Below are positions 13,642-17,603 of a DNA stretch of 64,000 bases, in pieces (position 1 is the stretch's first letter; each line of letters opens with the position of its first letter). The notes beneath the pieces were generated by a model that did no database searches, was not told where the DNA came from, and was given only the letters and a program-made list of their open reading frames with translations. The stretch is taken from NCBI GenBank assembly GCA_963845465.1, contig CAWJSH010000009.1:270196-334195 (forward strand). The letters run 5' to 3'. The position numbers were made by a program, and so were the translations under genes. The stretch is from an uncultured Acidobacteriota bacterium. Its GTDB lineage: Bacteria > Acidobacteriota > Terriglobia > Acidiferrales > UBA7541.

Positions 13642-15429
13642 TCAGCGCTTGGAGATTGGTTGTGGGGAGAGTTGGGAGCGGGATTCGGTGATTTCGTAGA
13701 AGTGGTCGGCGGGGACGTTTTGAAAGGTCTGGTGGGCGCCGCTGGGCCAGGTGACTTCGACGGTTTCGATTTTGGTGGCGTCGCCGAGGCCGAAGTTGGC
13801 GCGGAGATCGCTTTGGGACAAGTAGCTGCCGCCGCCGGCGATTTCGCGGATCTGGTTTATGCCGCCCAGCAGTGATTTTGATACGGGCGCCGATGGCGTC
13901 GCGATTGGATTTTGTGCCGACCAATTTGAAATTCGCGAAATGATTTTTGTGTAGCGCGTTGTTGTGGAGGAGTGTCGGCGGATCGCCGTTGTTGGCGACC
14001 AGGACGTCGATGTAGCCATCATTGTCGAAATCGCCGAAGGCGACGCCGCGCGCGGCGCGCGGGGAACGGCGGTCAGGCCGCCGGGGATGGTGACGTCGGT
14101 GAATTTGGTCCCTCCGAGTTCGTTGTGAAAGAGAGAATTGTGCTGCTTGTAGCGCGTCTCGGTGGAGACTTGTTCGATCTCGGGATAGACGTGGCCGTTA
14201 CCGATGAAGATGTCGAGCCAGCCGTCGTTGTCGTAGTCGAGAAAGCCGCCGCCAAAGCTGAGAACGTCTTTCGTGGCAAGGGTGATGCCGGTTTCATCGC
14301 TGACTTCGTCGAAGTAGCCTTTGCCGGAGTTGCGCCAGACGTGATCTGAATTTTTCTGGAAGTCGGAAATGTAGAGGTCGAGCCAGCCGTCGTTGTTGAA
14401 GTCGCCGAGCGAGATGCACATCGAGGCCATCATCTGGCCGTGCGTGTTGTAGGCCATGCCAGCGATCTCTGCCATTTCTCGAAATTTGCCGTTGTGGAGA
14501 TTTTCGTAGAGATAGGCGGGCTGACCGTCGTTGGCGACGAAAATATCCTGCCAACCTTGATTGTCCCAATCGGCTGCGCCGACGGAGAGATTTTTGCCGT
14601 CGGGCTGAAAAACTTTGGAAGATGCGGTGACGTTGGTGAAGGTGCCGTTTCCATTGTTGTGGTAGAGCGCGTTGGGGCTGCCGTGGTAGACGGCTGGAGC
14701 GCAACTGGATTTAATGCCGCCGATGTCGCAATAACGCTGCGCCTTTGGGCCGAGATCGACGTAGCTGCCGACGTAGAGATCGAGTTTGCCGTCGTGATCG
14801 TAGTCGAGGAAAACGGCGCCCGCGTGGAATGCGCCGGCTTCCAGGCCGGCGACTCCGGCCTTTTTCGTGACGTCGGTGAACGTGCCGTCGCCATTGTTGT
14901 GATAGAGGACGTTGGCGCCGAACTGCGAGACGAAGAGATCGGGATAGCCGTCGTTGTCGTAGTCGCCCCAGACGCAGCCGAGTCCGTAATTGGTGCCGGG
15001 AACGCCGGCGGCGTCGGTGACATCGGTGAAGGTGCCGTCGCCATTGTTGCGATAGAGCGCGTTTTTGACGGAGATGCCGCGGTTGTAGCGATCGCGTCCG
15101 TTGACGAAGTAGATGTCTTGCCAGCCGTCTTTGTCGTAGTCGGAGACACAAGCGCCGGGGCCGAATTCCTCGAGATTGATGGAGACGCCGTCGTTGCCTT
15201 TGAAGTGGGTGAAGTGGATTCCGGCGGCGGTGGTTATGTCGGTGAATTCGGGTGGGAGGCGGACTGGTCCTGCGGCTGCGTCGCGGCGGGAAGTGCTGCG
15301 AGCAGAACGGATGTCGCCGAAAGCACGACACAAAAAAATGAAAGCGTGCATGGCAAGAATGACTTGCCACGCGAGTTGAATTTCAATTTGGGCCCGTGCG
15401 TTACCTGCGAGGTCTCTCCGGATGCGCAA
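13642..15429 (-). CDS. CRTAC1-family / ASPIC-UnbV protein 2, with compensating frameshifts (~14055, ~13870); start uncertain
   Basis: DYDKDGWQD and DYDNDGYPD repeats; GGGSYLSQSDLRANFGLG. The segment VGTKSNRDAIGARI lies in the alternative frame. Confidence 0.85.
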   Translation of the reverse strand: MRIRRDLAGNARAQIEIQLAWQVILAMHAFIFLCRAFGDIRSARSTSRRDAAAGPVRLPPEFTDITTAAGIHFTHFKGNDGVSINLEEFGPGACVSDYDKDGWQDIYFVNGRDRYNRGISVKNALYRNNGDGTFTDVTDAAGVPGTNYGLGCVWGDYDNDGYPDLFVSQFGANVLYHNNGDGTFTDVTKKAGVAGLEAGAFHAGAVFLDYDHDGKLDLYVGSYVDLGPKAQRYCDIGGIKSSCAPAVYHGSPNALYHNNGNGTFTNVTASSKVFQPDGKNLSVGAADWDNQGWQDIFVANDGQPAYLYENLHNGKFREMAEIAGMAYNTHGQMMASMCISLGDFNNDGWLDLYISDFQKNSDHVWRNSGKGYFDEVSDETGITLATKDVLSFGGGFLDYDNDGWLDIFIGNGHVYPEIEQVSTETRYKQHNSLFHNELGGTKFTDVTIPGGLTAVPRAPRAASPSAISTMMATSTSWSPTTAIRRHSSTTTRYTKIISRISNWSAQNPIATPSAPVSKSLLGGINQIREIAGGGSYLSQSDLRANFGLGDATKIETVEVTWPSGAHQTFQNVPADHFYEITESRSQLSPQPISKR

Positions 15430-15798
15430 ACGATTGCGACGCCGTGAAGGCGTGGTCGTGGGCGAATCCCCTGGCGGGAACGCTAGTTCAGAATTTTAGG
15501 TACGACACCCAACTGCGAGGTAATGGGTGAGATATAGCGAAGGCGCGGGGAGATATCAAGCGGGATTTTGATGTGGCGGTGATTTCGGGCGCCGGGCTGG
15601 GCGTGGTCGAGGCGATCGGTGGTGACTCGACGTGGTGAGGCGGTGCGGATAGTGTTGCAAAAGCGGCGCGGCAGCGCCGCACTCCATATTGATCATGCCG
15701 GAGGATGGATCGGAGGGCTTCGCGATGCGGCGGCGAAGGTCAGGTGAAACGCTTGTTGAATGAATCGAAAAGTTAAATAGGAAATTTGTTGAATGCAC

Positions 15799-15826
15799 TT
15801 GACTCGATTGCGCGCGGCGCTAGAGT
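15799..15826 (+). promoter_or_regulatory. sigma70-type promoter of an orphan small transcript
   Basis: TTGACT-16 nt-TAGAGT, preceded by an AT-rich UP-like tract. Confidence 0.5.
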
Positions 15827-15832
15827 GAGCTT

Positions 15833-15943
15833 GTGGTATCCACGTTCCTGTGGAGACAGGAGGTGATCCCTGAGGTATAAGTCGAATTAGGATGTAGGTT
15901 GAGGGGCGCTCGTGAGTTTGACCGAGCGCCCTTCGGCTTTTTC
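15833..15943 (+). ncRNA. Candidate small RNA or micro-ORF transcript
   Basis: Lies between a promoter and a terminator-like hairpin; both flanking genes are on the minus strand. Contains AGGAGGTGATCC (15858-15869) and a TCCTGT-GGAG-ACAGGA hairpin. Confidence 0.4.
15901..15943 (+). terminator. Intrinsic terminator-like hairpin
   Basis: GAGGGGCGCTCG / CGAGCGCCCTTC stem followed by GGCTTTTT. Confidence 0.55.
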
Positions 15944-16011
15944 TGAGGATGTAGCGCGCGGATCGTTTTATTTGTTCCAGCGACCGCAAAACCGCCGGCA
16001 GGATGCTGGCG

Positions 16012-17603
16012 CTACCAAGCGCCTTCTTTGCGGCCCCACCACCAGAGTAAGCCTACCGTGGCGGTTGTCTGATGCTTCAAGAGCAAGCCTTGTGTGTCGG
16101 ATAAAAATGACGGCTGATTCGAATAGTCGCGGCGCCATTCATAGCGCATGAGGAAGCCGTCGGCGAATTTGTAGTCGAAGGTGACGGTGTTCTCTTTGAG
16201 CGCTTGCGTGATGCCGCTGAAGAGGCCGCCGCGGTCGGAGAGATATTCGGCGCGCGTGGCGAAGGTCATGCGCGGCGTGAATTGATATTGAAGATAGGCG
16301 GCGCCGCCGACGACGTGTTGAGGCGCGGCGGATTCGCCGGGCGCTTGATCGCGCCAGAGTCGCTGGAGGAAGTAGTCGCCTTCGAGGGCGACGGTGAGTT
16401 TTGGCGTGGGCTGCCAGGTGACGTAGTTGTCGAAGATGTGCGTGCGGCCGTTGGGCGCAGGGCGGATGGCGATGAAATCGAGACCGGGCTGGACGGGGAT
16501 CGGATTTGTGGGAGTCGCGGAGACTTCGCGATCGGGATGCTCCTGGCCGAGATAGTAGTTTGAGGTCCAGGTGATCGTTTTCGTGGGTTTGTAGACGAAG
16601 CCGAAGAGTTCGTCTTTGAAGCCGTTGGTGGCTTCGACCTGATTGGTGCCGTTGACGACCCAATAGTTGATCGTGAATTTGTCGGAAACCGGGAGGCTCG
16701 CGCGAATGCCCATGTGATAGAAGGGCAGGAAGTCGAAGAAGAACGAGCGCGAGTAGTTCATTTGGTCTTTGGTGTAGTTGCCTTCGATGCCGAGCGAGCT
16801 GCCCCATTTTCCGAAATCGATTTCGAGGCCTTTGCCGATCGGCGCGATGTAGGTGCCGTAGGCCTGGAAAATGTTGCGATAGATGTCGGGGCGCGGCTCG
16901 TTGTTGGGGTTGCCTTGCAGCGTGTCGGTGGCCTGGCCGAATTGGAGGTCGAGGCGTCCGCCCCAGCGGCGGCCGTCGGCGACGTCGGCGGGATGATCGA
17001 AGATGACGTCGGCTTGGTTGAGGCTGAACTCGTTGCTGAGGACGTCGTAGGCGCGGAGGAGATTGACGCGGCCGACGGGGGCGTTGAAGTTGTAGTCGTA
17101 GTAGCCGTCGAGCGCGACATTGATGGTGGTGCCGTGGAGGAAGGAGAGAGTTTTGGAGTCGTCGGGCAAGAGGGCGGATGTCGTTGGGGCGGCGGCTTGA
17201 GTAGGCGACGCGGCTGGATACTGCGGCGTAACTGGTGCCGCTGTGGCGGCGGAGATGGTTGCGATCGGGTCTGGTGTTGGAGCTGCGGATTCGGGGGGCG
17301 TTGTGGGCAAGACGGGCGCTGAAGCGAGAACCAGGCGTGGTTGAGACGTGGAGGCCGGGGCATTCGCTTGCAGTTGATGAACGGCGGCTTTGAGCTCAGC
17401 GACTTCGGCTTCGAGCGTGGAGATGCGTTGCTGCATGGATTGCGGGGATTCCGCGGTGGTGTCGGGCGAATTTGCCGGCCGGGTTTGTGCGTTCGCGGAG
17501 GCGGCCACGAGAAATAGTAGGGTGGCTGCCGCTTGCAGCGCTCTCGCCAGTGCGTGCGAACGTAGCTCGTCCGATTGAGCGGATGCGCAGTCTGATTTCT
17601 CAC
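16012..17603 (-). CDS. Outer-membrane beta-barrel porin (BBP2/OmpL-like) with coiled-coil and Pro/Ala-rich N-terminus; start uncertain
   Basis: DGYYDYNFN, GRLDLQFG, IFQAYGTY, DFGKWGSSLGIEG, RYEWRRDYS, aromatic C-terminal W. GGAGG-GTG at 17603 is in a neighbouring frame; the in-frame GTG is at 17508. Confidence 0.8.

Follow-up and report, generated by a model that had tools for sequence, protein, structure and literature searches.

What is encoded in the 580-bp gap that separates an FG-GAP/ASPIC gene (13,642-15,429, minus strand) from a BBP2 beta-barrel porin gene (16,012-17,508, minus strand) in the 64,000-nucleotide stretch of acidobacterial DNA analysed here (the window), where the plus strand carries a perfect complement of the 16S rRNA 3' tail followed at once by a reading frame of only six codons? 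Every feature that the first-pass annotation had described on the plus strand at 15,799-15,943 (promoter, 12-nt 16S complement, hairpin and terminator, with minus-strand genes on both flanks) was recovered at the same positions. The sigma-70-like promoter (15,799-15,826) consists of TTGACT (15,799-15,804), a 16-nt spacer and TAGAGT (15,821-15,826); it is the sole promoter-like site within 15,000-17,000 and suggests a transcription start near 15,833. Promoters scoring at least 9/12 were found in 102 of the 144 distinct upstream regions of homologues, and in most upstream regions the end of the -10 box lies 26-35 nt 5' of GGAGG, a position that would place the transcription start at the foot of the 5' hairpin, here called P1. 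From these signals we infer that a small mRNA of ~110 nt (roughly 15,833-15,942, plus strand) is encoded here by a free-standing gene, convergent with the porin gene. The window RNA (112 nt) has a fold z of -3.9 relative to shuffled sequences and beats all 200 of them. Coding on the minus strand at this locus was considered and rejected, since the two ORFs that overlap the region there (15,693-15,989 and 15,556-15,798) had no match in a Pfam search and the covariation described below favours an RNA on the plus strand.

BLAST searches against relatives returned copies with the parts in the same order, and when one genome per species was scanned for exact GGAGGTGATCC(N)CTGAGGTA, more than 119 stretches came up, nearly all of them in MAGs labelled Acidobacteriota, Terriglobia, or Ca. 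Acidiferrales/Acidoferrales/Acidiferrum, with a few under the names of other phyla. A covariance model, R1, was built from 64 non-redundant copies; it matches the window copy with 86.7 bits (E ~1e-18) over all 105 model positions (15,834-15,939). The search for homologues with such a model, which had been proposed as a check on the locus, showed that the unit recurs: out of 401 genomes sampled from the window's family (Acidobacteriota, Ca. Acidiferrales) R1 matches 239, distributed over 10 of 29 genera, and out of 287 high-quality genomes of this family it matches 188, mostly with one copy per genome and occasionally with two or three. When the phylum was sampled evenly, true matches were found in 2 of 401 genomes, both from the window's family. 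A comparison with Rfam, likewise proposed at the outset, matched no described family, neither for the whole window at gathering score nor for 15,500-16,200 at E values up to 10. That the locus is a genuine, conserved gene for a small RNA is thus almost certain; the RNA family to which it belongs is uncatalogued and restricted to a single family of uncultured soil Acidobacteriota (Terriglobia, Ca. Acidiferrales), a clade apparently known from MAGs alone. The genomic neighbourhood differs between copies: flanking proteins cluster across 9 of 138 loci at most, about half of these loci (about 50/50) have a co-oriented gene downstream, and no conserved synteny, transporter, modification gene or other partner was found near the 138 loci. 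Because neighbours are unshared and downstream orientation is close to even, the unit appears to be free-standing and not a leader or attenuator.

The extended Shine-Dalgarno (SD) sequence AGGAGGUGAUCC / AGGAGGTGATCC (15,858-15,869, plus strand) is a perfect 12-nt complement of the 16S 3' tail. The 16S rRNA of the same genome ends in ...GGATCACCTCCTTTCT, so that AGGAGGTGATCC is its exact reverse complement, and with one mismatch permitted 15 of 16 nt are complementary at the window locus. The consensus SD of the family is AAGGAGGUGAUCC (13 nt), and that of a second group of copies (subfamily 2) is AAGGAGGUGAUCCAG (15 nt). On the family tree each position of AAGGAGGUGAUCC shows 0-1 changes, except for the first A, which changed 3 times; the window lineage has a C in its place. 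In the window's genome the exact 12-mer is found at just two sites, this locus and the antisense strand of the 16S gene. Across the 5.7 Mb of this genome the anti-SD complement is matched 47, 19, 6 and 3 times at lengths of 9, 10, 11 and 12 nt, respectively (there are three 12-nt matches in other registers), and because these counts fall smoothly with length the 12-mer is not significant within one genome. Its significance is its conservation across hundreds of genomes, not the single 12-mer match. The predicted duplex between the SD and the 16S tail has roughly -28 kcal/mol (an overestimate, as helix-45 bases are included), compared to about -12 for plain GGAGG. For the CCCUGAGGUA part no other target of at least 9 nt was found in the rRNA operon besides the 16S tail, and within the rRNA operon the conserved core is complementary to this tail alone. 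A phylum-wide scan for AAGGAGGTGATCC outside rRNA gave ~100 matches versus ~8 for the reversed control; many of these matches represent in-frame Lys-Glu-Val-Ile coding, and the enrichment is therefore not a clean SD signal.

The consensus fold of the family comprises two helices, the 5-bp P1 and the terminator, and the region from the SD through the stop codon is unpaired. P1 (15,840-15,853, plus strand) has a CCAC/GUGG stem and the anti-SD-like loop GUUCCU. The intrinsic terminator (15,896-15,942, plus strand) has a GC-rich core stem formed by 15,904-15,912 (GGGCGCUCG) and 15,923-15,931 (CGAGCGCCC), an extended lower stem that reaches to about 15,938, and a U tract at 15,938-15,942. Compensatory changes were observed in 3 of the 5 pairs of P1 (e.g., A-U in 41 and G-C in 22; 96.9% of cells paired) and in 9 of the 13 pairs of the terminator (94.2% of cells paired), i.e., in 12 of 18 pairs for both helices together (94.9% of cells paired). 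The observed values were reached by 0 of 500 shuffles, and slid controls fell to 42-60% paired.

In the window RNA P1 is weak (-5.2 kcal/mol), and the minimum-free-energy fold contains an alternative hairpin, UCCUGU-GGAG-ACAGGA (15,846-15,861, plus strand; -8.5 kcal/mol), which ties up the 5' part of the SD and cannot form together with P1; in this lineage the masked-SD hairpin is thus the stabler form. It is this hairpin that the first-pass annotation had drawn, and it holds as the minimum-free-energy fold of this lineage, whereas the covariation backs P1. The P1 loop has the consensus G-Y-U-C-Y-U and pairs with A-GGAG of the SD in 89% of cells (slid controls 56-81%). Because this complementarity is family-wide, a refolded hairpin that masks the SD is generally possible; the SD itself is invariant, which makes covariation uninformative on such a hairpin. 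In full-length thermodynamic folds the GGAGG core is paired in 86% of members, often with CCUCU of the terminator 3' arm, and accessibility of the SD may therefore be limited or conditional. The linker between stop codon and terminator contains GUAG (15,894-15,897, plus strand), a copy of a GUAR motif: GUA[AG] was found within 18 nt 3' of the stop in 91 of 135 members (~23 are expected from shuffled linkers), in no fixed frame. An ATG-TAG mini-frame that had been listed among the possible coding units has no conserved start-stop, its sole recurrence being this motif.

The six-codon frame (15,870-15,890, plus strand) reads CUG AGG UAU AAG UCG AAU followed by UAG, and would specify fMet-Arg-Tyr-Lys-Ser-Asn if initiated at CUG. 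Of 132 distinct homologues, 131 have exactly six codons and a stop (the other one has TCA), and the stop in the 131 is TGA in 71, TAA in 34 and TAG in 26. On a maximum-likelihood tree computed without the stop codon and base 1 of the start codon, the stop type changed at least 26 times, and 25 of these changes gave another stop. Only one or two of the nine single-base neighbours of a stop codon are themselves stops. UGG was never found at this position, where independent purine variation would predict ~10%. Within the frame, 76 distinct sequences contain 25 out-of-frame stop triplets and 0 in-frame; its 21 nt are free of indels, whereas the adjoining linker and the hairpin loops vary in length. 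The spacer between SD and start differs by 0 or 1 nt among homologues with the frame intact: the complement ends at -1 of CUG in the window and in subfamily 1, and 1 nt intervenes in 7 copies. In subfamily 2, which was detected by the model, the sequence is AAGGAGGTGATCC-A/T-GTG AGG TWY nnn TTA CnT stop, that is, a different start codon and a spacer longer by 1 nt are again followed by six codons and a stop (one degenerate copy has ATG); its central region is near-invariant throughout.

The start codons of the 132 homologues are CTG (105), GTG (24), TTG (2) and ATG (1), always NUG, and as any NUG is a possible start, variation of the first base says little about initiation. CUG is a poor start codon. 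The remaining two frames are not conserved among homologues: the UGA inside NUGAGG closes one of them immediately, and in the other the first stop ranges from codon 3 to beyond codon 14. A second mini-frame of the first-pass annotation, GTG-ATC-CCT-GAG-GTA-TAA, fared no better, as its length varies widely among homologues. We conclude that the six-codon frame is very probably under selection as a frame.

The distribution of constraint within the frame was assessed by parsimony counts of changes per nucleotide on the family tree. The U-G of the start, A-G-G and the following U-A show 0-2 changes each. Codon 2 is AGG without any change on the tree, Arg being never encoded by any of the five synonyms; in this genome AGG accounts for 2.9% of Arg codons (1.9 per 1000 codons), and tRNA-Arg(CCU) is encoded by one gene. 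The wobble base of the Tyr codon changed at least 12 times, with UAC and UAU both common, and Phe or Leu takes the place of Tyr in subfamily 2. Frame nucleotides 10-17 show 11-22 changes each, without three-base periodicity, and nucleotide 18 (the U before the stop) shows 4. Residues 4-6 thus drift, with 55 different peptides among 131 homologues, and conservation is limited to residues 2-3. Variable residues 4-6 together with an invariant AGG suggest that selection acts on translation with a fixed geometry and a given early codon, not on a defined hexapeptide. The invariance of AGG-UA could equally reflect a contact at the RNA level (GAGGU is a 5-nt SD-like match), and AGG-UA, the U before the stop and the central region of subfamily 2 point to RNA-level constraints beyond coding.

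A similar layout has been described for rreB of Bradyrhizobiaceae, a stand-alone mRNA of 165 nt (Hahn et al. 2016/2017, RNA Biol 14:1353, PMC5711450). [quoted passage not shown] The rreB RNA co-sediments with 30S subunits and is translated weakly, the cause being the over-long SD and the GTG start; conversion of the start codon into a stop stabilised the RNA about four-fold; rre mRNAs lose stability through being translated; overexpression left growth unaffected, and the RreB and RreR peptides are conserved within their respective clades (PMC5711450). These mRNAs were recovered by a search that required 16 nt or more of perfect complementarity to the 16S 3' end (PMC5711450).

The acidobacterial unit is likewise stand-alone, with its own predicted promoter and terminator at conserved positions. 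In both systems the SD covers the whole single-stranded 16S 3' tail, a short conserved frame is present together with a 5' hairpin able to mask part of the SD, and the genomic context is not conserved between lineages; as in rre, the acidobacterial complementarity reaches up to, or takes in, the first base of a non-AUG start. Subfamily 2 shares with rreB the layout AAGGAGGTGATCCAG-TG with 7 nt between AGGAGG and GUG, and its 15-nt complement, AAGGAGGUGAUCCAG-UG, also takes in the G of GUG. On the other hand, the two belong to different phyla and show no sequence or Rfam homology. Complementarity of 16-17 nt in rre compares with 12 (window), 13 (subfamily 1) and 15 nt (subfamily 2) in the acidobacterial family, all below the 16 nt required in the rre search. 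The frame is shorter, at 6 codons versus 14 or 18, CUG and not GTG is the usual start, the peptide is unconserved beyond residue 3 whereas the rre peptides are conserved by clade, and the RNA is predicted to have about 100-110 nt compared to 165 nt in rreB. For rreB, 30S binding and translation were demonstrated experimentally, whereas their acidobacterial counterparts are deduced from sequence. Since homology is lacking and complementarity stays below 16 nt, the family is best filed as rre-like in its working and not as a member of rre. By analogy, we regard it as a minimal, phylogenetically independent variant of the rre-type ribosome-docking mRNAs and as their smallest known relative by design.

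Building on the family, its structure, the invariance of the SD, the conservation of the frame and the absent synteny, we consider it reasonably likely that the unit gives rise to an rre-type small mRNA that docks on the 30S subunit and is translated, with selection acting on the translating and not on the C-terminal half of the peptide. The RNA would dock through a 12-13-bp duplex that spans the whole single-stranded 16S 3' tail and runs right up to a weak start codon (CUG in the window, whereas relatives have GUG, UUG or AUG). From there the ribosome would read exactly six codons, fMet-Arg-Tyr/Phe-x-x-x, and translation would stop about 5-15 nt 5' of the terminator hairpin. What selection would retain is the act and the geometry of translation, namely the SD, the start, AGG, Tyr/Phe at codon 3, the length and the stop. 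The 5' hairpin with its anti-SD-like loop may refold such that the SD is masked, the masked form being predicted as the stabler one in the window lineage.

Several other explanations were weighed against this one. If the locus were a micropeptide gene, whose product is an N-formyl hexapeptide (fMet-Arg-Tyr-x-x-x) that acts, for instance, on the ribosome or as a signal and whose expression is set by the super-SD, then the conservation of frame, start and stop, of residues 2-3 and the synonymous exchange of UAC and UAU at Tyr would be accounted for. However, residues 4-6 vary at all three codon positions without periodicity (the 55 peptides in 131 homologues), Arg is always AGG, which points to a codon- or RNA-level constraint, and no conserved transporter, modification gene or partner lies nearby; a weak CUG start behind an over-long SD is also a poor design for production (PMC5711450). 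Of the micropeptide mRNA that the first-pass annotation had considered, the frame itself (CTG-AGG-TAT-AAG-TCG-AAT-TAG) stands, being intact in 131 of 132 homologues, but with codons 4-6 unconserved a specific peptide is doubtful, and we think a micropeptide gene unlikely. An untranslated 30S decoy, or an sRNA that base-pairs via GGAGGUGAUCCCUGAGGUA, in which the frame features would be by-products of RNA constraints, agrees with the invariance of the SD and the next 8 nt at the nucleotide level, with a P1 loop complementary to the SD and thermodynamic folds that often mask it, and with rRNA complementarity restricted to the 16S tail. Such an RNA leaves unexplained why the stop type changed at least 25 times at a fixed position and never to UGG or sense in intact copies, why out-of-frame stops are tolerated (25) and in-frame ones are not (0), and why 21 nt are free of indels beside an indel-rich linker. 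Simple titration is also disfavoured by the analogous system, where growth was not slowed by overexpressed rreB (PMC5711450). The earlier suggestion of a 30S-binding decoy probably holds for the binding, to judge from the 13-nt invariance and the rre layout (PMC5711450), but an untranslated decoy does not account for the frame, and we regard this explanation as improbable.

A short frame closely followed by an intrinsic terminator is also the layout of an attenuator, in which a leader peptide would control a downstream gene by translation-coupled read-through. In the window, however, the downstream porin gene is convergent, and over the 138 loci orientation is ~50/50 and a neighbour family is common to at most 9 loci; the absence of a conserved co-oriented downstream gene largely refutes this explanation, which we hold to be very unlikely. 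Least probable, to the point of being negligible, is the proposal that the RNA is a GGA-rich sponge for a CsrA/RsmA-like protein. The RNA does contain a few GGA motifs, but there are just 2-3 of them and they lie in the unpaired SD/frame region of the consensus and not in hairpin loops, the invariant UGAUCC does not belong to a CsrA site and is left unexplained, and no match to PF02599 was found in the 93.5%-complete genome, although control genomes score; the failure to find a CsrA gene in this genome removes the sponge from consideration.

The combination of a short frame, a strong SD and an early rare Arg codon is also known from toxic minigenes (phage lambda bar and synthetic minigenes of 2-8 codons with rare AGA/AGG near the start), for which peptidyl-tRNA drop-off and tRNA sequestration are reported when the rare Arg codon is the second, and from "hungry codon" effects (PMC2490762). 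The acidobacterial frame resembles the minigenes in falling within 2-8 codons, in its strong SD and in its rare AGG at position two, and differs in its weak start codon; the minigenes come from phage or were engineered, and were studied in E. coli under limiting peptidyl-tRNA hydrolase, whereas the acidobacterial frame belongs to a conserved, single-copy chromosomal gene. By analogy, we hypothesise that drop-off or tRNA sequestration could be caused by the acidobacterial frame. In the stronger form of this idea, which we judge quite unlikely, the locus would be a natural chromosomal minigene directed at the translation machinery and sensing free 30S subunits and tRNA-Arg(CCU): a near-irreversible 13-bp SD lock, together with the weak start and AGG, would cause ribosomes to stall or to drop fMet-Arg-tRNA(CCU), and the RNA would serve as a tunable brake on, or a gauge of, free 30S and the single tRNA-Arg(CCU). 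The length of six codons would then be set by ribosome geometry, with GAGGU 8-9 nt upstream of the P-site codon while the A site holds the stop codon. Antibiotic-sensing leader peptides of similar size are known as well (the hexapeptide MsrDL, and ErmDL with its MRLR motif); they act in cis on resistance genes, and it is their translation that matters and not the product. The hexapeptide scale of the frame is common to both, and some subfamily-2 peptides begin with MRL or MRF, but MsrDL and ErmDL sit upstream of resistance genes, whereas the acidobacterial unit has no conserved downstream gene.

To return to the rre-type reading that we favour, super-SD mRNAs of this type are conserved and bind tightly to 30S subunits, and the acidobacterial family would represent an independent and much smaller version of them. 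Its last three codons are free, yet length, start, stop and the rare codon 2 are strictly kept, which argues that in this class the translation of the frame, and not a specific peptide, is kept by selection. The question of what selection keeps in super-SD mRNAs thereby becomes testable. Because the 16S tail of E. coli has the very same 13-nt complement, ribosome assays are feasible without culturing the host. As the element is absent from Rfam, 239 of the 401 sampled genomes of this acidobacterial family carry a gene that is missed by current annotation.

The linker that follows the stop codon of the six-codon frame (window 15891-15903) carries GUAG at 15894-15897, a copy of a GUAR motif that recurs in the homologous linkers without a fixed reading frame. 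GUAR lies 1-10 nt 3' of the stop codon in 91 of the 135 family members, compared to about 23 expected from shuffled sequences. At the 3' end, the copies of subfamily 2, the homologues with a GUG start (L143 and L180-L202), show CUCUCUCCUU instead of a plain U tract. The AAGGAG within the Shine-Dalgarno (SD) sequence of these copies has its complement in this segment, and the two are predicted to pair in the full-length folds (the segment may be either an anti-SD mimic built into the RNA or just an extension of the terminator stem).

Some of the element-bearing contigs come from records that are labelled as other phyla: among L042, L070, L076, L079, L083 and L088, the labels read Verrucomicrobiia, Binatus, Dormiibacterota or Methylomirabilota. 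Because at least L042 and L083 apparently match contigs of genomes placed in the window's genus (G011:C36 and G009:C113), the deviant labels suggest mislabelled metagenome-assembled genomes and not transfer between phyla.

In the phylum-wide pattern scan of 401 Acidobacteriota genomes, the 13-nt word AAGGAGGTGATCC occurred about 100 times outside rRNA, compared to about 8 times for the reversed control, an enrichment that in its raw form overstates SD use because many of the matches are in-frame coding sequence for Lys-Glu-Val-Ile (e.g., L222, L223, L226, L227 and L231). In other acidobacterial genomes (L208-L210 and L232-L234), AAGGAGGTGATCC directly abuts ATG or A-GTG and is followed by a short frame of 14-18 codons (instances of this group are VDSYCRSRVEVASS / VLGDKSAAGEVASS and MNAGTLPGPASADTSRVR). 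These units look like additional, predicted small mRNAs of the type of the alphaproteobacterial rre genes, with sequences unrelated to those of the six-codon family.

The window's own genome contains a second 12-nt complement of the anti-SD, AAGGAGGTGATC, on the minus strand of contig C7 (at about 1177468), followed by TT-GTG-ATG-ATC-GGA...; this complement has the appearance of an ordinary gene's ribosome-binding site. Three further genomes (L214, L215 and L225) have an ordinary long gene, the product of which begins ..LRIGVFVCECGLNIAGT.., preceded by the same 13-nt extended SD as in the phylum-wide scan; very long SD sequences in this phylum are therefore not confined to mini-frames.
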